63,813 nt of DNA. Origin: a virus. Taxonomy: Duplodnaviria > Caudoviricetes. The notes under the pieces are model-generated. The model did no database searches. It was not told the DNA's origin and saw only the letters and a list, made by a program, of their open reading frames with translations. Below, piece by piece: positions 1-27,385 of the stretch (within the stretch, counting starts at the first letter, position 1; the number at the start of each line of letters is the position of its first letter). The DNA is taken from positions 1 through 63,813 of the IMG/VR virus record IMGVR_UViG_3300044630_005032. One strand, 5' to 3'. The translations under genes were made by a program, and so were the position numbers.

Positions 1-127
1 GGGGGCGGTGGGGGGCTGTGGAGGTTGTTGGCAATGGCAAAGAGCTTGCCAATATGTAACCCATCGTTCCATCTTTTAGTCAAAGGCACCTCCGCCTGAA
101 CTAGCGCCTCCCGCAGAAAAGCGGCAA
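1..127. repeat. Terminal overlap identical to 63687-63813 (and to internal 62891-63017)
   Basis: Direct sequence identity; 127 bp is a typical assembler k-mer overlap. Confidence 0.95.
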
Positions 128-251
128 AAGCGCGGCGAAAGTCGGCAGGCGAAGAAGGTAGGTCGTCGAGGCTTGTGAAAGTAAGAATTGCCGCATTAAA
201 TGCCGCCCTTGCTTCTGGTATCTCTACCGGGAATTCAACGTGCTTGCTCAC
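1..251 (-). CDS. Hypothetical protein spanning the circular junction (GTG at 251, continues 63686-63587); paralogue of 62791-63138 and 5435-5803
   Basis: Reads MSKHVEFPVE...FAAFLREALVQAEVPLTKRWNDG...ANNLHSPPPPPPT...LGEVDQ across the origin. Confidence 0.7.
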   Translation of the reverse strand, partial: MSKHVEFPVEIPEARAAFNAAILTFTSLDDLPSSPADFRRAFAAFLREALVQAEVPLTKRWNDGLHIGKLFAIANNLHSPPPP

Positions 252-436
252 GCCGGCACCCCCTGCTGCTGGGTGCGGACAACGTGAAGCGCGAAGTCAA
301 GAACATCATCAAACGGGTTGGCTTGACGCCAGGCGTCGTACTCGGCCCGCAGTTGTGCGCGGCTGCTGCGCTCAGCTGGGGTTAGCTCGGGGCCGTCGTC
401 GTGGGGCTCTAGCGAGAGGTGTCGCGCAAGGTCCAT
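248..436 (-). CDS. Hypothetical protein, paralogous to the C-terminus of 63135-63590
   Basis: Shared MDLARHLSLEPHDD...LTPAER.SRAQLR; stop overlaps the next start. Confidence 0.65.
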   Translation of the reverse strand: MDLARHLSLEPHDDGPELTPAERSSRAQLRAEYDAWRQANPFDDVLDFALHVVRTQQQGVPA

Positions 437-484
437 GGTGTTGCGGGTCGTTGGTGGTGGTGCGGCTGTTGCCGTTCCGCAACT

Positions 485-1126
485 CTAAGCCATTGCTTCC
501 GCTTTTGCAAAGCAGGTGCTGCGGTTTCGTAGCGCATCGAGCCAGACGACCGTTTCGAGCCCGGTGACCCAGGGCACGGTGCAGTCGTCCGGGTCGTGCT
601 CGGTGGTAGTGACGCCAAGGGGGCTGGCCCAGATCAGAAAGGGCCGATCGATCACGGTGCGGAGCTGATCGGAGCCCATCACCAGGGCCCCGCCAAGGGC
701 AGCAAGCCAGGGCTCGGGGATGGCTGGGGGCTGGGCCTCAGTGATCAGCAGGGCGATGCCGAGGGCGCCATCAGGGAACCTCAGCAGTAGATCGGCGGTG
801 GTGGCCACCCGGAGGCGGTGGTCAGCTAGGTGGATCGGCGCCGCAATGATCTGCGCCCTTTCCCATAGGCCCCAGGAGGCGAGGTGCGCGGTTGTGCGGC
901 CGATCGGGTCCTTCCCCCCGCTGAAGCGCTCTACACGCCCTCCTGCTGCTCGCTGGCGGGCCATGCGGGCAAAGCTGCGGCGAACGGTGCCGTTGGGCTG
1001 GCTAATGCGCTGCTCGGGGTAGAGGCTGGCGACCACCTCGGCCGCCGTGCGGCGGATCAAAGCGCCGCTCTGGTGTTCGTAGATGCCGGGGATCGGTGTG
1101 GGCTTGCAGGTGGGGGAAAACATCAC
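485..1126 (-). CDS. Hypothetical protein, possibly a degenerate PD-(D/E)XK exonuclease-like fold
   Basis: LADHRLRVATTADLLLRFPDG resembles the phage exonuclease core, but no D-x-K follows; coupled to the methylase stop. Confidence 0.45.
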   Translation of the reverse strand: MMFSPTCKPTPIPGIYEHQSGALIRRTAAEVVASLYPEQRISQPNGTVRRSFARMARQRAAGGRVERFSGGKDPIGRTTAHLASWGLWERAQIIAAPIHLADHRLRVATTADLLLRFPDGALGIALLITEAQPPAIPEPWLAALGGALVMGSDQLRTVIDRPFLIWASPLGVTTTEHDPDDCTVPWVTGLETVVWLDALRNRSTCFAKAEAMA

Positions 1127-2139
1127 TGGCCCCCCATAGAACCGGCCAGCTCCAGCACCCGCGCCAGCGGCACCATCGCCACCTGAGGCACCACGGCATT
1201 GCCCAGCGCCTTCAGGCGGTCCACCCTGGAGGGAACCCCATCATCTCCTCGACGAACGACGGGTTCAGATACATAGGCCCGCCAGTCGGGGTTGAGTCGT
1301 TGCGGAGCAGGTGGCCAGGCAGGCTGGCCCGCCCTCGCTGCGAGGGCGGCAAGGTGCTGTTCTTGCTGTCGTTCACCGTTGGCGTGGGAATCAGACGCGC
1401 TACGACCGTTTCCAGATTCGGGAACCGCGCTGGGTCCTGATTGCCTTCCGTGTCCAGCCGGGCGGCCATCGCCGAGCAGGTGCGCGGTGTTGGCAGCAAC
1501 TGCGCCGCAATCGTCAGCGGCATTCCCATCCCGTTGCCATTGTTGGCAGTCAGCTTCACCCGCTCCCGCCGCGCAAGCCACGTCTCCGGCCTCTCCCCAT
1601 CGTTCGCAACGCACGCCGCGGGCGTCGGCAGCCCCGGCGTCCCGTCCGGTCCGATAAGCAACGCACCACCACCGGTCGCGTCGGTGGCAGGCTCCCAGAG
1701 CGCTCGCCGGAATGCACGCCCATTCACAGTCGTACCCGATCGCGGCCAGTTCCCCGAGAACGGTATTGAGCCCGTTGGAAACAATGGCAGCGACGTTTTC
1801 CAGCACGACGTATCGGGGTCGAACCACGCGAACGACTCGCATGAGTTCGTAGAACAACCCCGAGCGGGTGCCTTCTTTGATGCCGGCTTGTTTGCCGGCA
1901 ACGCTGATGTCGGTGCAGGGAAATCCACCGCAAACAACGTCGGCTGAGCCTGCTGCCGCCTTGAAAGTGCGGATGTCATCGTGAATGGGAACGGAGGGCC
2001 AGTGTTTGGCAAGGATGCGTTGGCAGAACGGCTCACGCTCCACAAACTGCACGGTTTCAATTCCACCCAGCCAGCGAGCGGCGAGGCTGAAGCCGCCGAT
2101 GCCGCTGAAGGTGTCGATCATGCGAAGGGGTGTCATCAC
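1123..2139 (-). CDS. dcm: DNA cytosine-C5 methyltransferase (large subunit; lacks motif IX)
   Basis: Motif I FSGIGG, IV GGFPC, VI ENV, VIII HRRDR, X LGNAVVP. Confidence 0.92.
   Translation of the reverse strand: MMTPLRMIDTFSGIGGFSLAARWLGGIETVQFVEREPFCQRILAKHWPSVPIHDDIRTFKAAAGSADVVCGGFPCTDISVAGKQAGIKEGTRSGLFYELMRVVRVVRPRYVVLENVAAIVSNGLNTVLGELAAIGYDCEWACIPASALGACHRRDRWWCVAYRTGRDAGAADARGVRCERWGEAGDVACAAGAGEADCQQWQRDGNAADDCGAVAANTAHLLGDGRPAGHGRQSGPSAVPESGNGRSASDSHANGERQQEQHLAALAARAGQPAWPPAPQRLNPDWRAYVSEPVVRRGDDGVPSRVDRLKALGNAVVPQVAMVPLARVLELAGSMGGQ
1212..2066 (-). CDS. Nested alternative-frame methyltransferase small subunit carrying motif IX (start uncertain)
   Basis: 284-codon open frame wholly inside dcm, with LPTP repeats and a C-terminal LNPSFVEEMMGFPPGWT (motif IX-like). 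Confidence 0.65.
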   Translation of the reverse strand: MELKPCSLWSVSRSANASLPNTGPPFPFTMTSALSRRQQAQPTLFAVDFPAPTSALPANKPASKKAPARGCSTNSCESFAWFDPDTSCWKTSLPLFPTGSIPFSGNWPRSGTTVNGRAFRRALWEPATDATGGGALLIGPDGTPGLPTPAACVANDGERPETWLARRERVKLTANNGNGMGMPLTIAAQLLPTPRTCSAMAARLDTEGNQDPARFPNLETVVARLIPTPTVNDSKNSTLPPSQRGRASLPGHLLRNDSTPTGGPMYLNPSFVEEMMGFPPGWTA

Positions 2140-2891
2140 CGGAGCCCCCTGGCAACAGGCCCCACCAAGTCAGCCATCAGCCCCTCGGCGGAAGGCTTCG
2201 TAGCCTCGCCCTCTAGGGCTTCCTGCAACATCCGGTCCACGGTCTGGCCATTGCGCAAAACCCAGGCGGCAACGGTTTCGATTTTGGTTTCCGTCAGGAA
2301 CGGGGCGCCCATCAGCACCTGCTTGAAAAAAGAGCGACCCATGTTCAGTTGCAGAGGCGTCCAGGTGCCCGTGTCAACCCCAGCGTCTCGCAAATCCTTC
2401 ACAGCCTTCATCACCTCCCGCAGGTGGGCCCGCCGCTGCTCGTCGGTTTGCTGCAGCCACGGTGGGCCGTTACCACCGGCTCCCTCGGGAAGGCGCGGGG
2501 TCGTATCCAGCCTCACTTCATCCCGGACCGGTGCAGTGTCGTGGAAACAATCACGGCGGGCCATGCGTTGAGCTAAATCAAGTCGCAGCCCCCTGTCCAA
2601 CAAGGGCTGATCGGTAAAAGTCTCCAATCCACGCTGTTCTTTTGTTGTTCGCTTAACCGGATAAACGTAGCGAAGGAGCGCTATGTGAGGCGCAATGTCC
2701 CTCTGTGGCTCTGGGTCAAGCACCCGCTGCTGAACCGCGTACAGCAGGATTTCGTCAGAGAGGTCAATCTTCGCCCGCTCGGGGAAAGTGTCCCACATCA
2801 TCACCAGGGCCGCTGCCGATAACGGCTTCGCCATCGGCAGGATTTGCATCAGCGAGGTGATGGCTACCTGGAACTGCTGAAGGCTGATCAC
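2136..2891 (-). CDS. Hypothetical replication-associated protein (helicase loader/inhibitor-like position)
   Basis: Translationally coupled directly downstream of the initiator; helical N-terminus. Confidence 0.5.
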   Translation of the reverse strand: MISLQQFQVAITSLMQILPMAKPLSAAALVMMWDTFPERAKIDLSDEILLYAVQQRVLDPEPQRDIAPHIALLRYVYPVKRTTKEQRGLETFTDQPLLDRGLRLDLAQRMARRDCFHDTAPVRDEVRLDTTPRLPEGAGGNGPPWLQQTDEQRRAHLREVMKAVKDLRDAGVDTGTWTPLQLNMGRSFFKQVLMGAPFLTETKIETVAAWVLRNGQTVDRMLQEALEGEATKPSAEGLMADLVGPVARGLR

Positions 2892-3928
2892 GCAACCACC
2901 TCAGCGAGCAGGGTTTGCTGAGAGGCGGCAGCAGCGGCTGCCTTGCGGGCATCGCGGGCCTGGATGAACGCGACGGCAGCGGCGGCGTTTTCCTCAGGGG
3001 TTGGGCGGCGGTTGCAGGTGGTGCCCTGCTGCATCCCGAACTTCCGCCAGTTGCCGTAGCTGACCGACAGCCACGGCTTGATCGGGGCTCTGTCAATGCC
3101 GGTCTGAAGCTGGGTGCGGACCATCTCGGTTCCGCCTTGTGGATCCTGCTGGATCAGGCCGAGCTGTTTGATCAGATCATCCCAGGCTTGCTGGGTGCGG
3201 GCTCCGGCTTTCACGGCCCAGAAACCCAGAATCTCGGGATGGACGGGCAGTAGCTCGGCAGGGATCAGGTCGTGTGAGGGCTGGAAGCGCGGCTTCCGCG
3301 CTGGCTTGGTCAGGGCCATGGTCTGCGGTGGTGGTTCTGAAACTTTAGCCGATTTCGGGCTTTTGGAAAGCGCAGCATCAACGGGCAAGGCTTCGACCGT
3401 GATCAACTCGCCCTGCCCCTCGCCCGCGTTCCCCCCACTGGGGGGTAAGGGGGGTTCTAATGCTTTCTTAGAATTGATCTTCTTAGATTTATCTACTTCC
3501 TGTCCGTCTCCCGGACACTCCCTGTCCGTCTCCCGGACACTCCCTGTCCGTCTCCCGGACACTCCTTGTCCGTCTCCCGGACACTCCCTGTCCGTCTCCC
3601 GGACACTCTGGGCGGACTGTTCGGCCTCAACCTGCCAATGCGTTTCCCAGATCGTCAGCCGATAGCGCGTTGAAGTGCTCCGCCCGTTTTCAAGAAATGC
3701 CCGCTCACGCCTGACCCAGCCCTTACGCTCAAGGCCTGTGAGGACCAAGCAAAGCGTGCTCTTAGCCATCCCAGCTTCCTTGTGCAGCAGTTCCAGGCCT
3801 GGGTGAATGTTCGGGTAGTGACTTTGCAGGCACCACATGACCGCCAGCTCCAATGGAGTGGTCTTGCCTCTCAACCAGTTCGGCAAAGCCGTAAATGTGG
3901 GCTTCTGCCCGATGTACTCGGTTGCCAT
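2888..3928 (-). CDS. Phage replication initiator with N-terminal HTH and internal iterons
   Basis: FTALPNWL, PGLELLHKEAGMAKSTLCLVLTGLERKGWV winged HTH, STRYRL; iteron array mid-gene as in lambda O. Confidence 0.8.
   Translation of the reverse strand: MATEYIGQKPTFTALPNWLRGKTTPLELAVMWCLQSHYPNIHPGLELLHKEAGMAKSTLCLVLTGLERKGWVRRERAFLENGRSTSTRYRLTIWETHWQVEAEQSAQSVRETDRECPGDGQGVSGRRTGSVRETDRECPGDGQEVDKSKKINSKKALEPPLPPSGGNAGEGQGELITVEALPVDAALSKSPKSAKVSEPPPQTMALTKPARKPRFQPSHDLIPAELLPVHPEILGFWAVKAGARTQQAWDDLIKQLGLIQQDPQGGTEMVRTQLQTGIDRAPIKPWLSVSYGNWRKFGMQQGTTCNRRPTPEENAAAAVAFIQARDARKAAAAAASQQTLLAEVVA
3499..3608. repeat. Five tandem 22-bp iterons (CCTGTCCGTCTCCCGGACACTC), probable replication origin
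   Basis: 5 x 22 bp with one mismatch; each unit has the dyad TGTCCG-n5-CGGACA; adjacent AT-rich tract at 3460-3497. Confidence 0.85.
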
Positions 3929-10223: not shown

Positions 10224-10249
10224 CCCCCAGTCACCGTTGAGCCGCTCAT

Positions 10250-10273
10250 AAAAAAGGGGCCAACCACGGCCCC
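10250..10273 (-). terminator. Intrinsic terminator closing the RAMP-like/array unit
   Basis: Minus strand GGGGCC-GTGGTT-GGCCCC-TTTTTT. Confidence 0.75.
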
Positions 10274-10292
10274 CTCGATCTCTGCACCAGTC

Positions 10293-10850
10293 TCACCGGG
10301 CCTTTTGCAATTCGCGCTCCCATGTGCTGCTGACCTGACAGTTGGTGAGCGCTTCGTGGGCTTCATCGAGCATCCCGAACGCCACTCCCAGCACAGCCAT
10401 CGACTTCCGATCGCCCATCCGCTGGGTGCGTAGTTTCAGCTCCTCGACCTTGCGGCGGGCCTCCACCACCAGGCCCACGGCCTCCAGTACCTCCTTAGCC
10501 ATCGGGTCGTAGCGCTCGACCACCGGGGCAGCCGCCTGGGTGACAGGTCGCACCGATGCCACGCGGGGCTCTTGCGGAGCAGCAGGCACCACCCGCACCA
10601 CCTTGATCAGCGTGCTGGCCTGATGCTTGCGCCACTGTTCAGCGGCCACCGGATCGCGCCACTCAAACGCCGGATGCAGCGGTGCCTCCTCCGGTCTGGC
10701 CTCGTCAACCACCGCAGCAGGGCAGATGGTGCCATCACGCCGCCGGATGCGGTCTAGCTCGCTGCCAGCGGTCTGTGCATCGACGCCCATCGCTTCCTCG
10801 CCATCTTCGATTCGGAAGGTGTACTCGGGTTCAGCCTTGATGAAATCCAT
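10293..10850 (-). CDS. Partner protein downstream of the GGY-NN array (185 aa)
   Basis: AAVVDEARPEEAPLHPAFEWRDPVAAEQWRKHQASTLI motif; C-terminal coiled coil; ATG at 10850 after a hairpin. Confidence 0.75.
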   Translation of the reverse strand: MDFIKAEPEYTFRIEDGEEAMGVDAQTAGSELDRIRRRDGTICPAAVVDEARPEEAPLHPAFEWRDPVAAEQWRKHQASTLIKVVRVVPAAPQEPRVASVRPVTQAAAPVVERYDPMAKEVLEAVGLVVEARRKVEELKLRTQRMGDRKSMAVLGVAFGMLDEAHEALTNCQVSSTWERELQKAR

Positions 10851-10899
10851 TTGTTCAGGGAATAGGGAATGAGGGGGCCCATTCGGACCCCCATTCTGC

Positions 10900-11735
10900 T
10901 GCCATTTGGCAACCGCAACACGCCAGTTGAGCCGCATCGTGCCGTGTCTTGCGCCAACAAGCCAGGCCAGCAGCGCCACGCCCGGTCGATCGTCGATCGT
11001 TCCTTGCCTTGCCTGCTATGCCCTTCCATGCCGCGCTTTGCCGAGCCGCGCCGAGCCTGCGACGACGTACACCGCCAGACCTTCCTAGCCAGTCCTGCCG
11101 TGCCTCACCAGACGTTCCGCGCCAGATCTCGCCTTGCCTGCCACGCCTGTCCAGGCCACGCCTTTCCTTGCCTGCCGATCCCTGCCTTCCTGGCCATGCC
11201 TGCCGTCCGATGCCGTGCCTCGATCGCTCCTGGCCTCGTCACTCCGTGCCTGCCAACCCCGCCGTTCAACGCCACGTCGTACCACGCCTGCCGAACCGAG
11301 CCTGTCCTTCAGCACCCTGCCACACCAGACCCAGCCATGCCCTTGTTGCTTCGCCTGCCATGCCCCGCGAGAGGTGCCCACCAGACCTTGCCCGCCGTGC
11401 CTTGCCCTAGCCCGACCACGCCTAGCCAGCCGTGCCTGACCTTCCACGCTTGGCCACACCTTGCCTGCCAGAACTGGCCTGGCCAGGCCGTGCCTACGAA
11501 GCCATGCCTGCCATGCCTGTCCAGTCCAGTCCTCGACAAGCCCCTCGAAGCCATGCCTGCCACGCCCTCCCGGCTTGGCCGTTCCGACCTGTCCGGGCCA
11601 TGCCTGCCGCGTCAACCCTTGCGAGCCCCGGCCACGCCTTCCGCACCATGCCTGCCGTGCCAATCCCGACCAACCCTGTCATGCCAGGCCTGCCAACCCT
11701 TGCCACTCCGCTCGTTGCCTAGCCAGCCGTGCCAA
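10900..11735 (-). repeat. Non-coding GGY-NN pentamer array punctuated by GGCAGGC (~19 units of 28-50 nt); candidate guide-RNA array (VIPR-like)
   Basis: 12 exact GCCTGCC on the plus strand (11136, 11170, 11198, 11248, 11286, 11353, 11463, 11506, 11555, 11602, 11650, 11688) plus 1-mismatch variants (11011, 11055, 11093, 11315, 11390, 11425, 11722); 5-nt periodicity between them. Confidence 0.85.
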
Positions 11736-11736
11736 T

Positions 11737-11889
11737 TCATGTCAGCCGAGGGGCTGCCAAAAAAGCCGCCACCACCAACACAGCCGCTGTGAACCACCCG
11801 GTAGGGTTGAACCACAGGAAGCACACAAACCACGCTGCCACAAGCAGCAGCAGTGCCATGGCGGCACGGTTGGCGGTGGGGTCATCCAT
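11737..11889 (-). CDS. Small hydrophobic protein (50 aa, probably 2 TM), not in the ORF track
   Basis: MDDPTANRAAMALLLLVAAWFVCFLWFNPTGWFTAAVLVVAAFLAAPRLT; GGAAAGCT motif 5 nt upstream. Confidence 0.55.
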   Translation of the reverse strand: MDDPTANRAAMALLLLVAAWFVCFLWFNPTGWFTAAVLVVAAFLAAPRLT

Positions 11890-11924
11890 ACTAGAGCTTT
11901 CCAGCTATACCGAAAAACAGCTAT

Positions 11925-12578
11925 TTAGATAATTTCAAAGAGACCGAAGCCTAAGCCCGCCGATGCTTTGCTATCGGGCCGCCCCTCGCCAATGCCCACC
12001 TGGAGCCCCACCCGGCTGATCAGGTTCACCACGTCGCTGGAGCTGAACATCCCCGCGTCGTAACGAATCCGCAGGATGGCAGCCCACTCCCGATACATCG
12101 GACGGCAGCGCAGATCGACCACACCTGTAGCGTTCCGGGTTTGTGTTACCCACTGCTCAGCCTTCCCTTCGGACAGCCGCACCAGCGGGGCACCATCGAC
12201 CCGATCGAAGCCATCGGCCAGCACGCTGAATGCCAACTTTGCGAAGGTCATTTTGTACCCCACGGTTCGGCAAGCACTGATGGCGCCATTGCGGAATGCA
12301 GCGGCATGGATGCCCTCCCAACCCTCCTCTGAAATGTGCTTGGCGTCCTCAAATAGGGCATCAAAGTTCTTCGGTTCGCGCACTTTCTTGGCCTTAGCGG
12401 TGCTGCCTGCCTCCTGCGTGGCCCGCATCATCTGAAGCGCTTTGGCTGAGAAGCGGTTGACGACTAGGGGGCTGGTGCCTCTGATGTTGATCTCTAGGGA
12501 TTGGAAATTTGGCGCTTTGATGACGATGGCCTCTTCAGGGGCCTGGGCTTGGGTTTTGGCCTTGGTGCTGGTCGCCAT
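11925..12578 (-). CDS. Stand-alone RAMP/Cas7-like protein (Vipr-like), 217 aa
   Basis: N-terminal strand INIRGTSPLVVN, helix GIHAAAFRNGAISA, C-terminal glycine-rich loop GLQVGIGEGRP...GLGFGLFEI; upstream of the repeat array; no other cas genes. Confidence 0.72.
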   Translation of the reverse strand: MATSTKAKTQAQAPEEAIVIKAPNFQSLEINIRGTSPLVVNRFSAKALQMMRATQEAGSTAKAKKVREPKNFDALFEDAKHISEEGWEGIHAAAFRNGAISACRTVGYKMTFAKLAFSVLADGFDRVDGAPLVRLSEGKAEQWVTQTRNATGVVDLRCRPMYREWAAILRIRYDAGMFSSSDVVNLISRVGLQVGIGEGRPDSKASAGLGFGLFEII

Positions 12579-12670
12579 GGTGGTGTTTCGTGATGAATTG
12601 CCGCTGGCCTAAGCCGTTGCGGTTTCAAAATGCTATCGTACGTAGGTCGTTCCGAAACGATCACCACCAC

Positions 12671-13813: not shown

Positions 13814-15289
13814 ATGAGTTTATTTTCTACTGATTTCTACCCCACCCCGCCCGAAGTAGCGGCCACCATGCTCGATTGCCTCGACCTACGGGGCAGGACG
13901 ATCCTGGAGCCCAGCGCCGGTAGTGGGAACCTGGTGCGCGAGTGCCTGAACCGTAGCGCTGCAGAGGTGATTTGGTGCGAAGTGGAGCCCAAGCTGCACG
14001 GCATCCTGACCAGCATCTGGAACGCCACGCCAGCCCACAGCTACGCCGACTTCCTGCAGGTGCATCCGGCCGACGTGTCGCACATCGACATGATCGTGAT
14101 GAACCCGCCCTTCTCGGCGGACGAGGCCCACATCCTGCACGCCTGGGAGATCGCTCCGCCCGGCTGCGAGATCGTGGCACTGTGCAACTGGAACACGATC
14201 GATGAGTACGTGCATTGCCTTACCCAGCGCGGCCCCAAAGGTCTGCAGAAACAGCTAGCCCACTTGATCAACGCCTACGGCAGCAAAGAAGACCTAGGCG
14301 AATGCTTTGCCACTGCCGAGCGGCCTACACGGGTCAATGTCGGCATGGTGCGCCTCCGCAAGCCGGGGCAACGTGTAAGCGCCGCTGATGAGTTCGATGG
14401 GTTCTTCCTCGGGCCCGACGACATCGAGGCCCAGGGCGAAGGGCTCATCCCCTACCGGCGCAGCCGCGACATCGTGAACCGCTACGTGGAGGCCTGCCGC
14501 ATCTACGACGAGCAGGTGGAGGCCGGGGTGCGCCTGCGCAGCGTGCTCGACGGGTTCTTTGGTGGGGAGCTTGGCCTGCAAGTCACGGTCGAGGGGGCCC
14601 CGGTTACCCGCAACCGGTTCCGCAAAAATCTTCAGAAAGCGGCATGGAAACACGTGTTCGGCGAGTTTCTGCCCGCGCAGATGGCCACCAGCAACCTGCA
14701 AAAGGACATCAACGCCTTTGTGGAGGAGCAATCCAAGATCCCGTTCACCGAGCGGAATATTTACCGGATGCTCCAGATCGTGGCCGGCACACAGGAGCAG
14801 CGGGTAGACCGTGCGGTTGAGGAGGCGATCGACAGCCTGACCAAGCACACAAAGGAGAACCGCTGGGGTGTGGAGGGCTGGGTTACCAACTCGGGCTACA
14901 TGCTGAACCGCCGCTTCATCCGCAGCTACATGGCTGAACCAAGCTGGAGCGGCGGTTTTGTCACAGTCGACTGCAGCCAGAGCGATGAGATCCGCGACCT
15001 GATCAAGGCACTGTGCTTCCTCACTGGCCGGTCGTTTGAAGAGGTGGGCGAGCCCCGTAACCCAGGAGTTGAAGGTGGCCGCTACTGCCCCGGCGAGTGG
15101 TACGAGTGGGGATTCTTCCGGTTCCGCGCCTACAAAAAGGGCACGGTGCATTTTGAGTTCCTGGACGAGGAGGTGTGGGCTGCCGTCAATGCCCGCTATG
15201 CACGGATCAAGGGGCAGGTGCTGCCGGAAGCCTTTAGGCGAAAGGCTGCCCGCAGGCCCAGGCGTGAACCGGCGGGGGTAGCGGCATGA
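13814..15289 (+). CDS. SAM-dependent DNA amino (N6A/N4C) methyltransferase, DUF4942-like C-terminus
   Basis: DFYPTP, LEPSAGSG, MNPPF; C-terminal FFRFRAYKKGTVHFEF. Confidence 0.85.
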   Translation: MSLFSTDFYPTPPEVAATMLDCLDLRGRTILEPSAGSGNLVRECLNRSAAEVIWCEVEPKLHGILTSIWNATPAHSYADFLQVHPADVSHIDMIVMNPPFSADEAHILHAWEIAPPGCEIVALCNWNTIDEYVHCLTQRGPKGLQKQLAHLINAYGSKEDLGECFATAERPTRVNVGMVRLRKPGQRVSAADEFDGFFLGPDDIEAQGEGLIPYRRSRDIVNRYVEACRIYDEQVEAGVRLRSVLDGFFGGELGLQVTVEGAPVTRNRFRKNLQKAAWKHVFGEFLPAQMATSNLQKDINAFVEEQSKIPFTERNIYRMLQIVAGTQEQRVDRAVEEAIDSLTKHTKENRWGVEGWVTNSGYMLNRRFIRSYMAEPSWSGGFVTVDCSQSDEIRDLIKALCFLTGRSFEEVGEPRNPGVEGGRYCPGEWYEWGFFRFRAYKKGTVHFEFLDEEVWAAVNARYARIKGQVLPEAFRRKAARRPRREPAGVAA

Positions 15290-15630
15290 TCAGCTGTCCC
15301 GATTGCAGCGCTTTGGGCCATGAGGTCCTTCCCCGTCTTGAACTGATTGAAGCCAGGGTGGAGGCATTGGTTGCCGCCAAGGTGCGGGAAAGCACCCAGC
15401 CAGCCGAAGGGCCTGCCGTGGCATCGGTGCCGATCGAGCGGTTAGACCTCCGCACCCTGCGCGCCTACAACACCCTCAAGCGGGCAGGAGTGAGCACGGT
15501 GGATCACCTGCTGAACCTGACCCCTGCGGATCTGCTGCGGATCAAGCGGTTTGGTGTGACCTCGCTGGCTGATGTGGTGGAGGCCCTGGAGCGGCTGGGG
15601 CTGGAGCTTCCACGGGAGGCCAGCGCATGA
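15286..15630 (+). CDS. Stand-alone RNA polymerase alpha C-terminal-domain-like protein
   Basis: PIERLDLRTLRAYNTLKRAGVSTVDHLL...DLLRIKRFGVTSLADVVEAL matches the alpha-CTD pattern. Confidence 0.85.
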   Translation: MISCPDCSALGHEVLPRLELIEARVEALVAAKVRESTQPAEGPAVASVPIERLDLRTLRAYNTLKRAGVSTVDHLLNLTPADLLRIKRFGVTSLADVVEALERLGLELPREASA

Positions 15631-16656: not shown

Positions 16657-16963
16657 TTGGGTCTGCCAGCCTCCGATACGAGGTGGCCCTCACCGCCTGA
16701 TCCCTGGCCCTGGCAACCGCCGGGGCTTTTGCTTTGGCGCCCATTGTTACGGTTTCTGAAACGCAACGACGACAGGGCTTTACGAAAGCGCGATTTACGG
16801 CTTATGATTTGTGGACCGGGGCAAAGACCCGGCACCACCACCAACCGACCACTCGCCAGTCATGCCCTAATTCACGGCCCGCTAGGGCCCATGCGGTAAA
16901 CCAAACCAAGGCGCCTTGACCGATAGCGAGTTACGGCGTCACCTCACACTTTTTTACCCTCCA

Positions 16964-17296
16964 ATGTCTACTCCCGATTCCCAAGTCCTTGAGATCAACG
17001 GCGTCAGGTACGTGCCTGAAACCGCCGCCGGCCCCGCTGCGCTACCTGCAGGCGATAGGGCTGTGTTTGTAGTTGATCGCGGCTTCATTTATGCCGGCGA
17101 TTGGAGTTTGACTGATGGAGAGTACACACTGGCTAATGCGGTTAATTTGCGCCGCTATGAATCTATCGGGTTTGAGGGTGTGCTAGCAGACCCAAAGTCA
17201 GACAAGGCCACAATCGTAGCCATGCCTTATCCTGTAATTGTGCCAGCTGGGTCTGTGCTGTTTAGGGTCCCCGTTCCTCAAGGGTGGGGACTGTGA
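16964..17296 (+). CDS. Small beta-rich hypothetical protein coupled to the G-X repeat ORF
   Basis: RAVFVVDRGFIYAG...LANAVNLRRY; GTGA overlap with the next ORF. Confidence 0.7.
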   Translation: MSTPDSQVLEINGVRYVPETAAGPAALPAGDRAVFVVDRGFIYAGDWSLTDGEYTLANAVNLRRYESIGFEGVLADPKSDKATIVAMPYPVIVPAGSVLFRVPVPQGWGL

Positions 17297-17586
17297 CAGC
17301 ATCACTTCAAGCCGTTAGGCCGGTCGGCAATGGCGATGGCTATGGCTATGGCGATGGCTATGGCCATGGCGATGGCGATGGCGATGGCTATGGCTATGGC
17401 TATGGCCATGGCGATGGCTATGGCTATGGCTATGGCTATGGCGATGGCGATGGCGATGGCTATGGCTATGGCTATGGCTATGGCTATGGCTATGGCCATG
17501 GCGATGGCTATGGCTATGGCGATGGCGATGGCGATGGCTATGGCTATGGCCATGGCACCGTTTCAACTGCATTCAGAAGGCGCTAG
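17293..17586 (+). CDS. Gly-(Tyr/Asp/His) repeat protein
   Basis: GDGYGYGDGYGHG... with short unique termini. Confidence 0.6.
   Translation: MTASLQAVRPVGNGDGYGYGDGYGHGDGDGDGYGYGYGHGDGYGYGYGYGDGDGDGYGYGYGYGYGYGHGDGYGYGDGDGDGYGYGHGTVSTAFRRR
17330..17557. repeat. Hexamer tandem repeat (ATGGCN) x ~38
   Basis: Only one position in six varies (G/T/C). Confidence 0.95.
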
Positions 17587-17892: not shown

Positions 17893-18537
17893 ATGGCAAA
17901 CCCAACCACAGTTGAAGAATTGTTGGATTACTGGCCTGGCAACATCCCGTTCAAAGGGAGTCTTGTTAGCGATGATGGCTCTTGCATGTGCGCACAGGGT
18001 CAAGCCTTGCACTTCTTGGATAAATACAATTCAAGTGACTTGCGCTACATTGATCAGGCAACTGCCGACAAAAGAGTAGCAGAGCTTTTTGGTATCAGTC
18101 GCTCACATTCAGTGCTGCTACGAATTGTTAATGACAGACAAGATGGTGCGCCGTCGAATGTCATTCGCAATCCCGAACAGGTTTTAGGTGACCAGGCGCA
18201 TGTAGTACTGGCGTTTTGGCGGAATCTTGACCGCATGACTGCAAATGACTGGGACGCCGCATGGGACGCCGCATGGGCCGCCGCATGGGCCGCCGCACGG
18301 GACGCCGCATTGGCCGCCGCATGGGACGCCGCACGGGCCGCCGCATGGGACGCCGCATGGGACGCCGGACGGGACGCCGCACGGGACGCCTCATGGGACG
18401 CCGCACGGGCCGCCGCATGGGCGACAAACGAAATCCAAGGCGCCGCAGTTATGCGCGCAAAAGGTTTGCCGTTTTTCTTCCTGCCGCTATTTGGTTTTGC
18501 AGACCCAGAAGCTGTATTAGCGGCAGATAAAGCCTAA
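17893..18537 (+). CDS. Hypothetical protein with AAWD/AARD repeats
   Basis: CMCAQGQAL N-terminal domain; 12-bp coding repeat; flanked by an 18-bp direct repeat. Confidence 0.7.
   Translation: MANPTTVEELLDYWPGNIPFKGSLVSDDGSCMCAQGQALHFLDKYNSSDLRYIDQATADKRVAELFGISRSHSVLLRIVNDRQDGAPSNVIRNPEQVLGDQAHVVLAFWRNLDRMTANDWDAAWDAAWAAAWAAARDAALAAAWDAARAAAWDAAWDAGRDAARDASWDAARAAAWATNEIQGAAVMRAKGLPFFFLPLFGFADPEAVLAADKA
18250..18420. repeat. 12-bp coding tandem repeat (GGGACGCCGCAT variants) x ~14
   Basis: Direct inspection. Confidence 0.9.
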
Positions 18538-25023: not shown

Positions 25024-26474
25024 CCCCCCACCGCGCCCCTGACCCCTCCTCGCGCCTCGCCGTGCTGGAGCTGGAAAGCACCGCAGCGGCGCACATGCGT
25101 CTTGACATCCCCGCCACCCTCGCCCGCATCCGCGACGACCTCCACGGCGGGCAGGTTGAGCTGTTCGATGACACCACCACCCGTGAGATCGGCGTGGCCG
25201 CTGGCTACGGGGCAGGGAAGACCCTGGGAGCCTGTGCCAAAGCCTTTCAGCTCGCGGTGCTGAATCAGGGCTTTATCGGCTGCGTGCTGGAGCCAACTGG
25301 GCCCATGCTGCGGGACATCTGGATCAGGAAGTTTGATGCCTTCCTTGATCACTACGGCATCCCCTACACCTTCCGTGCATCGCCGCTCCCCGAGCACATC
25401 CTCCACCTACCTGATGGTGATACGCCCGTACTAGCCCGGAGCTTTGAGAACTTCAAGCGCATTGTCGGCCCCGACTGGGCATGGGCCCTTGTTGACGAGG
25501 TGGACACCGTTCAGGAGCAGATCGCCGCACGGGGTTACGAGAAGATCCTCGGCCGCATCCGGGTTGGCCATGTCAGCCAGCTTGTCTTCCTTTCCACCCC
25601 TGAAGGATTCGTCTGGCATTACAAGACCTTCGGCACCGTTGAAGCCCAGGCCGATCCTGGTAAGCGGTTGATCAGGATGCGCACGCAAGACAACCCACAC
25701 TTGCCCGAGGCTTACCTGGACAACCTGCGCACCCGATACACCAGCAATATGCTAAAGGCTTACATGGAAGGCATCTACATCAACCTGAAGAGTGGCCAGG
25801 TTTACGACCGCTTCAACCGTGATTATCACGTCAAGCCGCTACCTGATGGCCTACAGCTCACTGATCAGATCCTGATCGGCATCGATTTCAACGTAGGTAA
25901 TATGTCAGGCATCCTGCTAGTGGTCCGCAAGGGTATTGCCCACGCCTTTGGCGAGATCATGGGCGCCCATGACACCGATGACCTGTGCCGCAAGGTCCGC
26001 AAGCGATTCCCCGAGCGTTCGATCTGGGCCTATCCCGATGCCAGCGGCGCCAACCGCAGCACTAATGCCAGCCTGTCGGACATCGGGATCCTGAAGTCCT
26101 ACGGCTTTGCCAACTACGCCCCTGATGCCAATCCCCCGGTGCGCGATCGGGTGAACGTGGTGCAGGCTCTGCTGTTGAACGCCAAGGGTGAGACAAGGTT
26201 CTGGATCAGCCCAGAGTGCCCACGGCTGATCGAGGCCCTAGAGCGACAGCCCTACAACGAGCAGGGCGAGCCGGACAAGAAGACCGGCTACGACCATCCC
26301 AATGATGCCGTTGGCTACCCGCTGCATCGCCTGTTTGCTGCAGAGCTGGGCTACGGGCCCGGCGGCCCCATGCGGATCACCACCGCCACTTACGGCCACG
26401 GTTCTACCGCACTGCTGCAGCAGCCGGAGCCCCCACCACCCCGGCGGCGGTCCGCTATCCCCGGCTTCCGATGA
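25020..26474 (+). CDS. terL: Terminase large subunit
   Basis: Walker A AGYGAGKT, Walker B ALVDE, LSTPEG; nuclease GIDFN, DASG, DHPNDA. Confidence 0.93.
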   Translation: MTPHRAPDPSSRLAVLELESTAAAHMRLDIPATLARIRDDLHGGQVELFDDTTTREIGVAAGYGAGKTLGACAKAFQLAVLNQGFIGCVLEPTGPMLRDIWIRKFDAFLDHYGIPYTFRASPLPEHILHLPDGDTPVLARSFENFKRIVGPDWAWALVDEVDTVQEQIAARGYEKILGRIRVGHVSQLVFLSTPEGFVWHYKTFGTVEAQADPGKRLIRMRTQDNPHLPEAYLDNLRTRYTSNMLKAYMEGIYINLKSGQVYDRFNRDYHVKPLPDGLQLTDQILIGIDFNVGNMSGILLVVRKGIAHAFGEIMGAHDTDDLCRKVRKRFPERSIWAYPDASGANRSTNASLSDIGILKSYGFANYAPDANPPVRDRVNVVQALLLNAKGETRFWISPECPRLIEALERQPYNEQGEPDKKTGYDHPNDAVGYPLHRLFAAELGYGPGGPMRITTATYGHGSTALLQQPEPPPPRRRSAIPGFR

Positions 26475-27385
26475 CTACCACTCTCACGCCACAACCCACC
26501 GACACCCTCCCGGAGCTCCCCAAGCGCAGGCGACGGGAGCGCAAAGGTGCGCCGCTGGAGCAACCGACCAAACCTGGAGCACCACCGCGCACTGAGCTAT
26601 CCGAGCGGCTGATTGTGGAAAACCAGGGGCTAGCCGAGGCAGCCGCTGCTAAGTGGTCCCGCCGCTGCTCCCGCCCTTTTGAAGACTTCATCGGCCCTGC
26701 CCTAGAGGGGCTGATCAACGGGTGCCGTCGCTACGACCCGCACAGGATCAACCCCGCCACAGATCGCCCCTATGCGCTCTCAACCTGCGTGTGCATGTTT
26801 ATCGAGGGGGCCATCAAACACCACATTCGGGACCACGGCTACGACGTGAAGATGCCATCGAAGTGGCGCGAGCACTACCCCAGGGTGCGGCGCCTGATAG
26901 CCGAAGGTCAGACCCTTGCGCAGATCGTTGAGGCCCTGCCCTGCTTCACCGAGGAGGAGATCACGGAGATGCTTGGCGGCATGGTCGGCACGGTGGAGCT
27001 GGAAGACGAGCTGACCCTGTTCAGTTTGCACCAGCCACAGGCCACCGAGGCAGCCCTTGCCCCCGCGCTCTATGCCCTCACCGATGCAGCGTTCGCCAAC
27101 CTGCGCCCCGCTGATCGTGGCCTCCTGGAGCGGTGGGCAGCTGATCCATTTAAACGGGCCTACCCCTCGGGGCCGATGATTCAGTTCCACAACCGTCTGA
27201 AGACGCAGCTGCGTGGACGCACCCTGGAGCAGTTCCGCCAGGGGCTCCTAGGGCTCGACGTTGCCACCATTGCCCCTGCACCCCGTGAGCGGCGCCCCCG
27301 CCAGCCCAGGCCCGCACCGGCCGAGGTGGTACAGCCGTCCCTGTTCGCCCGCCGCAAGCCGCATCCCAAGGCGGTGAAGCTCTAA
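26471..27385 (+). CDS. Phage sigma-70 family factor, SigF/SigB-like (late sigma)
   Basis: Region 2 LIVENQGLA...PFEDFIG...GLINGCRRYDP...IEGAIKHHIRD...VKMP. Confidence 0.85.
   Translation: MTTTLTPQPTDTLPELPKRRRRERKGAPLEQPTKPGAPPRTELSERLIVENQGLAEAAAAKWSRRCSRPFEDFIGPALEGLINGCRRYDPHRINPATDRPYALSTCVCMFIEGAIKHHIRDHGYDVKMPSKWREHYPRVRRLIAEGQTLAQIVEALPCFTEEEITEMLGGMVGTVELEDELTLFSLHQPQATEAALAPALYALTDAAFANLRPADRGLLERWAADPFKRAYPSGPMIQFHNRLKTQLRGRTLEQFRQGLLGLDVATIAPAPRERRPRQPRPAPAEVVQPSLFARRKPHPKAVKL

Follow-up and report, generated by a model that had tools for sequence, protein, structure and literature searches.

A probable VIPR locus in a temperate picocyanobacterial phage, with guides predicted to read abrB-like and dnaE genes

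VIPR, described in 2026, is a small CRISPR-related system for RNA-guided silencing of DNA (bioRxiv 10.64898/2026.04.26.720920). Its guides follow a 1-nucleotide (nt) skip rule on wobble-aligned targets, and the segments of staggered arrays (treated in the legend to fig. S18) overlap by one base (10.64898/2026.04.26.720920). The available parts of the reports on the SUSP1 VIPR describe one protein subunit per repeat, a gapped R-loop, transcriptional silencing and the need for an accessory gene (10.64898/2026.04.26.720920; 10.64898/2026.04.26.720927; 10.64898/2026.10.15.759431), with R138 and D177 of the SUSP1 Vipr protein needed for silencing (10.64898/2026.04.26.720927). Reported VIPR targets are satellites, prophages, viruses and other VIPR loci (10.64898/2026.04.26.720920), and host REP decoys are the targets of satellite solo guides, according to the available text of 10.64898/2026.10.15.759431. 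Here we analyse a locus of this type on the minus strand of a 63,813-nt viral stretch (IMG/VR record IMGVR_UViG_3300044630_005032; the window). A preliminary description, made from the letters alone, had likened the locus to the VIPR architecture; since VIPR does exist in the literature as a described family, the locus does not represent a novel type of system. What would be new are the predicted host-gene targets of a complete operon, namely AbrB-like regulators and dnaE.

The unit runs in the order vipr (11925-12578), a 50-amino-acid open reading frame (ORF; 11737-11889), a repeat array (~10929-11733), a hairpin (10867-10896), a partner gene (10293-10850) and a terminator-like hairpin (10253-10276). 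The two minus-strand genes claimed beforehand, of 217 and 185 amino acids, are both present. The first, vipr, encodes a stand-alone RAMP with an RRM core, a thumb and a glycine loop, and all four motifs named in the preliminary description (IRGTSPL, AAAFRNGA, GIGEGRP and GFGLF) occur in the translation. The RAMP/Cas7-like fold proposed there was borne out by structure prediction: the AlphaFold (AF2) model (pLDDT 94) matches Csm3/Cmr-type RAMPs best, with Csm3 in first place (9g9a_D; Z 11.4, root-mean-square deviation 3.9, 145 residues aligned), Foldseek is concordant, and the top 34 matches by Z are all CRISPR RAMP entries. The protein thus resembles the Cas7-group RAMPs of class 1 CRISPR systems (Csm3, Cmr4) in fold and in its top structural matches. 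It differs from them in its low identity (~10%), in having no cas operon or repeat-spacer array, and in its gapped rather than contiguous pairing. As the preliminary description had stated, no cas family was found among the window ORFs scanned against PHROGs (79 + 9 ORFs, a subset drawn from a mechanical list of 96 plus neighbours), and no spaced-repeat CRISPR array was found at the locus, which places it outside class 1 CRISPR-Cas.

On sequence grounds, the 217-amino-acid protein is a homologue of the characterised SUSP1 Vipr. A single-sequence comparison of the two gave an E value of 0.36; a family profile built from 128 relatives and run against PDB sequences recovered SUSP1 Vipr (36pp_D) at E 3.6e-6, the sole match under E 0.4. 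As in the SUSP1 type II VIPR (PDB 36pp, as far as the available parts of the reports describe it), the thumb arginine and the acidic and arginine residues of the G-loop align: SUSP1 R138 and D177 correspond to R159 and E198 of the window protein, and SUSP1 R179 to the invariant R200. The family is large, with 3059 homologous proteins and, at 50% identity, 2442 clusters, and the window protein has no family match in Pfam or NCBIfam. Several homologues in named phages are annotated as hypothetical, including Cyanophage Cy-LDV1 g34 (L054; 57% identity), Mycobacterium phage Donkeykong gp49 (L055), and proteins of Mycobacterium and Gordonia phages at 30-36% identity.

The array (10929-11733, minus strand, ~805 nt) has the form of a staggered vrRNA array with ~19 segments of 4-14 GGY-NN units. 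The pentamer periodicity claimed for it is far beyond chance: positions 10861-11760 contain 49 pairs of GGY at a spacing of 5 nt, where 1000 dinucleotide shuffles give 5.9 +/- 2.4 (maximum 17), and the three densest 200-nt windows genome-wide all fall within the array (with 22, 12 and 9 pairs, the highest count elsewhere being 7). The array is, however, ~805 rather than ~830 nt long, and it is no clean run of pentamers, since besides 130 units of five nt it contains 35 of four nt and 3 of six nt. Roughly half of the four-base units form a recurrent junction that splits the array into its ~19 segments, which are joined mostly through the four-base unit GGCA with the register shifted by one base. 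This junction agrees with successive guides overlapping by one base, the published staggered form being compared through its figure legend. The remaining four-base units sit within segments and are common to close relatives; they may be tolerated single-base losses or overlaps, and in one case a four-base unit of the window is a five-base unit in relatives.

The same layout is found in related viruses. Among 53 related viral loci, 43 reach a partner gene downstream of vipr and the other 10 end 800 nt or less from vipr; a clear periodic array lies between vipr and partner in 41 of the 43, and 9 of the 10 also show an array. The density cut for an array was passed by 50 of the 53 loci, with two weaker and one cut off, so that GGY arrays are conserved beside vipr homologues, a point that the preliminary description had left to be checked. 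Unit gains, unit losses and one-base shifts differ from relative to relative.

The window, which carries direct terminal repeats, represents a complete phage genome; its ORFs include integrase, terminase, portal, capsid, tape measure and sigma factor families (PHROGs scan). A Vipr 87% identical to that of the window is encoded in a Synechococcaceae metagenome-assembled genome (MAG), and it is because of this relative that we assign the picocyanobacterial host group; judged from its sequence, the window is a temperate phage of freshwater picocyanobacteria. Targets were decoded with the published rule of two read bases followed by one skipped target base. The gapped dinucleotide code of the preliminary description stood in this modified form: plain concatenation of the NN pairs is wrong, as one target base is skipped between read pairs. 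Of seven guides tested in host relatives, two decode to targets, both with the skip on the wobble base. The wobble statistic across loci follows from peptide-motif selection and was excluded as evidence.

The first guide (11691-11733, minus strand) is antisense, under the 1-nt skip rule, to the codons for L-N-F-T-A-F-Y of cyanobacterial AbrB-like proteins, which the available parts of the sources describe as transcription regulators (PMC8066212; Pfam PF14250). Its six-unit core finds matches in 50 of 61 genomes related to the host MAG. In the first 37 genomes listed it matches in 36, usually two or more times, as against 6 of 37 for a reversed control, which does not model chance matches on conserved peptides. 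Twenty of the 30 loci examined carry the AbrB-like motif L-N-F-T-A-F-Y, the skipped base being the wobble base. The match runs on into the junction unit; the copy of this guide in one relative reaches two units farther upstream, with one mismatch. The guide also has an inner four-base unit of which only the first read base matches the AbrB site. We considered whether every four-base unit might be a pentamer that shares its final G with the next unit; this fits the base composition and the end of the first guide and fails at that inner unit, because of which a single-base loss is at least as likely. A separate idea, that the first guide is a promoter -10 box, was dropped after the AbrB match emerged. 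The window genome itself has no AbrB-like gene. Under an alternative reading of the four-base unit, the first guide matches 14/16 at 17125-17148 within the phage's own gene 16916-17296, which we judged to be chance rather than a self target.

The last guide (10929-10968, minus strand) is antisense to the codons for E-A-V-V-F-P-K(-S), a stretch of the OB fold in DnaE (DNA polymerase III alpha). Its seven-unit core matches 14/14 in 42 of the 61 genomes (control, 2 matches), including all 11 genomes nearest the host MAG, with one copy in each. Among 30 loci examined, 28 are the E/D-A-V-V-F-P-K motif in DnaE context, wobble-aligned; Pfam confirms DnaE on one of the loci, and in 15 of 29 loci the Ser codon that comes next agrees with the eighth unit. 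When the guide is extended across its upstream junction, 18-19 of 19 read positions match in 21 of 30 host-relative loci, an extension defined post hoc, after the target had been seen. The window genome has no dnaE. In six relatives (L007, L010, L011, L012, L014 and L015) the 5' half of the dnaE guide is kept and the 3' half is changed in the last one or two guides; these altered guides would spell other V-F-P-K-S variants, for which a target search found none.

With its targets decoded, the locus can be set beside the described systems. As in staggered VIPR (10.64898/2026.04.26.720920), a phage carries a lone RAMP together with a single accessory gene and an array of GGY/NN repeats, whose segments would overlap by one base; the decoded targets obey the 1-nt skip rule, are wobble-aligned and lie outside the phage's own genome. 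Unlike staggered VIPR, for which the paper states 9-16 repeats, it has ~19 short segments of 4-14 units with many irregular units inside them, and its two decoded targets are also host core genes. The SUSP1 system, as described in the available parts of its reports, also has guides that cover only a short stretch of conserved codons (six units in the case of SUSP1 vrRNA4); it differs in having a pseudoknot tail after each guide, where the window has one tail, at the array end. The host matches in the SUSP1 literature, again in its available parts, are REP decoys of satellite solo guides rather than genes read by a complete operon. We found no host core-gene target in the available parts of the published VIPR literature, a survey that did not cover the target tables (Data S3), which could hold such cases, and a term search of the available text of 10.64898/2026.10.15.759431 returned no mention of dnaE, AbrB, cyanobacteria or staggered arrays.

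We consider it probable, and with good confidence, that the locus is a working VIPR of a temperate freshwater picocyanobacterial phage, with two guides decoded to abrB-like and dnaE motifs. The SUSP1-like residues R159, E198 and R200, the fold, the conserved layout and the two target matches all count for this reading. In such a system, vipr, the array and the partner would probably form one transcript, as their layout suggests, and short guides would arise from the array, by cleavage or by initiation, wherever the register shifts by one base, as published staggered arrays imply. By analogy with SUSP1, one Vipr subunit would bind each GGY, the NN pairs would read two of every three bases of double-stranded DNA, and the Vipr filament would block transcription, with the partner as the putative accessory factor. 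The first guide would read the abrB-like motif and the last guide the dnaE motif, with the skipped base on the codon wobble position, and the predicted outcome is silencing of abrB-like and dnaE genes.

Several observations weigh against a working VIPR with these targets. First, two further SUSP1 residues, W178 and H17, are not kept in the window protein, where G199 and N41 replace them. Second, the four-base units found within segments, roughly half of the total, may reflect decay. Third, an unbiased test of variability across the whole array in six relatives gives a trend only, with 30 of 258 read positions variable against 66 of 387 scaffold positions (p 0.07). The stronger contrast seen in orthologous copies of four guides, with 2 extra alleles at read positions against 47 at scaffold positions, is inflated, since similarity at the read positions was the criterion by which the ortholog sets were chosen; matches outside the array and divergent copies of the last guide had also been removed before counting. 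Fourth, the dnaE guide was selected among 650 scanned windows, and control readings of these also yielded 4 and 6 exact 14/14 matches. Finally, five of the seven guides tested stood at control level in host relatives, two guides gave no signal in viral contigs, and in 1.6 of 2.41 Mb of one reference genome, skip-1 windows with at least 15 matched bases numbered 3 against 1, 1 and 0 in controls.

Other target searches were likewise unproductive. That same 1.6 Mb held no third target, and the phage's own genome together with related VIPR phages (1.7 Mb) gave no excess of skip-1 over skip-0 or skip-2 readings. An exact scan of viral contigs with two middle guides returned 59 and 1 matches, the 59 being mostly of low G+C and none homologous to the window. 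A 16/16 match of a relative's guide needed an assumed base and was set aside as chance, and guides decoded as peptides found nothing among 390 Vipr and partner homologues. The third guide (11605-11652), whose read positions are invariant in four orthologues, fits the same abrB motif on the opposite strand at 11/14 and the vipr of relatives L016, L039 and L040 at 14/18, both near chance level.

If the locus is a working VIPR, the loaded complex should bind the predicted host abrB and dnaE sites, whatever selected the guides. Because both genes occur in the host chromosome and in other cyanophages, the selected target could be the host, rivals or both. The preliminary description had suggested competing phages as targets, which holds insofar as both genes are found in other cyanophages and falls short in that the sites also lie in host chromosomal genes. 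AbrB-like proteins act as global regulators in cyanobacteria, and DnaE has an essential role in the host. The outer guides could have been kept because silencing or road-blocking host AbrB-like regulators and dnaE brings about takeover or growth arrest and denies rivals the host polymerase, a plausible account to which we give somewhat less than even odds. The sites occur in nearly every close host genome, the host is always present, and the extended dnaE guide fits most host-relative loci better (18-19/19) than it fits phage dnaE (16/19, with a 14/14 core). Cyanobacterial-type dnaE is also rare in phages, with four carrier contigs, all of one clade (L444-L447); the core motif occurs in 38 viral contigs, of which 7 are DnaE-like, the three beyond this clade being distant. 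In 13 AbrB-carrying phage genomes (most of each covered) a second guide had no target, and the dnaE phages had none for the one other guide tested. Against host-directed selection, the ORFs scanned in the window include an integrase and none of a DNA polymerase family, so the phage should need host Pol III, and lasting silencing of dnaE should harm the lysogen. The 19-position extension is, moreover, post hoc and junction-crossing, and the other guides tested do not match the host.

Selection against rivals comes out about as probable as selection against the host. Here the guides would aim at host-derived abrB and dnaE copies in competing cyanophages, and the host matches would be collateral, tolerated through brief expression. 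This agrees with all natural targets of complete VIPR operons in the available parts of the published work. Cyanobacterial AbrB-like proteins are encoded by at least 94 viral contigs, many of 45-80 kb (L199-L278 among them), and in 80 viral AbrB loci the first guide, read as seven units, fits 36 perfectly (14/14) and 63 at 13/14 or better; none of 15 AbrB-carrying phages encodes Vipr. A complete cyanophage of 94 kb likewise carries dnaE beside tail genes with the 14/14 core. Yet no further guide converges on AbrB or dnaE phages, and phages of the dnaE clade are rare, the guide matching them less closely than it matches the host. As to the carriers themselves, the complete one, L446 (G348; 94,461 nt, direct terminal repeats), encodes a full-length cyanobacterial-type dnaE at 112-3708 beside tail/baseplate-like genes, as do L444, L445 and L447, and the DnaE of this clade is ~75% identical to that of the host MAG over 611 residues. 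We found no paper on AbrB-like regulators in cyanophages and none on cyanophage dnaE, in searches that did not extend to subscription papers.

A bolder form of host-directed selection, which we put forward tentatively and rate a little below either account above, casts this VIPR as a programmable host regulator: clade-conserved guides would silence or road-block chromosomal dnaE and both abrB-like genes in a CRISPRi-like takeover or growth arrest, and Vipr would tolerate four-base units as a relaxed code.

An unlikely account takes the locus as a true VIPR with a partly decayed array, one or both decoded targets having matched conserved peptide motifs by chance. Any gapped pattern that spells a conserved peptide matches many related genomes, which the reversed control leaves out of account; many windows were tried, many units are irregular, and one four-base unit has a five-base counterpart in relatives. 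Against chance, two independent guides, the first and the last, both give wobble-aligned matches, and both matches extend past the searched core. A rough estimate, made by reasoning rather than from an empirical null with random guides, puts the chance of each match below 1%. Least probable by far is that the repeat is a simple repeat or coding sequence, as a 307-codon plus-strand frame covering the array (10869-11792) might suggest, beside an orphan RAMP or Cas7-like anti-CRISPR, since the period is five rather than three, units are gained, lost and shifted by one base among relatives, the array always lies between vipr and partner, and Vipr is the protein's sole clear solved sequence relative.

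In the available parts of the published work, VIPR is a weapon between mobile elements, with host DNA entering only as decoy REP sites. The complete operon analysed here has guides with perfect predicted sites in global regulator genes of the host and in its replicase gene, present as a single copy. If the guides act on the host, RNA-guided silencing would be an additional route by which phages control their hosts; if they aim at phage copies, the locus would suggest that cyanophages are engaged in an arms race centred on abrB and dnaE genes of host origin, with collateral host binding tolerated. Either way, two defined natural pairs of guide and target would be available for work on staggered arrays and four-base units.

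The remaining features of the unit flank the array. After the last guide, a 3' tail (10897-10928, minus strand) is conserved in 9 aligned loci and may form a stem-loop; its fold does not stand out from those of shuffled sequences (z -1.0), nor is there two-sided covariation. The hairpin claimed at 10867-10896 was found: it is G+C-rich (-18.5 kcal/mol, z -2.1), closes the array directly before the partner gene and is conserved in relatives, with a two-sided change at one pair. The array has no match in Rfam. The partner gene (vap-like; 10293-10850, minus strand) encodes 185 amino acids from an ATG at 10850, with a conserved N-terminal domain and a C-terminal helical hairpin. It belongs to a family of 127 relatives and matches phrog_15946 in PHROGs, with no family match in Pfam or NCBIfam and only unnamed clusters in the ESM Atlas; its structure model is weak (pTM 0.35), and only the C-terminal hairpin matches structures, non-specifically. 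Of the terminator claimed at the end of the unit, a hairpin with a U run is present (10247-10276, hairpin 10253-10276, minus strand; z -2.0), although a consensus scanner did not report it.

Between vipr and the array lies the hydrophobic 50-amino-acid ORF (11737-11889, minus strand), overlooked in the preliminary description; tblastn found it in 4 of 53 related loci, which makes it an optional insert, and it has no family in Pfam, PHROGs or NCBIfam. L042 and L051 have a different, A+T-rich insert at this place. The intergenic stretch between vipr and a divergent plus-strand gene (12579-12670) is the presumed promoter region from its position, and a sigma-70 consensus scan of it gave no match. 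Elsewhere in the window, a stand-alone RNA polymerase alpha C-terminal-domain-like protein (15286-15630) and a SigF-like sigma factor (26471-27385) suggest additional routes for steering host transcription. The window also contains a 22-nt iteron-like tandem repeat within a replication-initiator-like gene (3495-3608), a 6-nt repeat that would be Gly-Tyr-like if coding (17326-17556), and a 12-nt repeat at 18250-18421.

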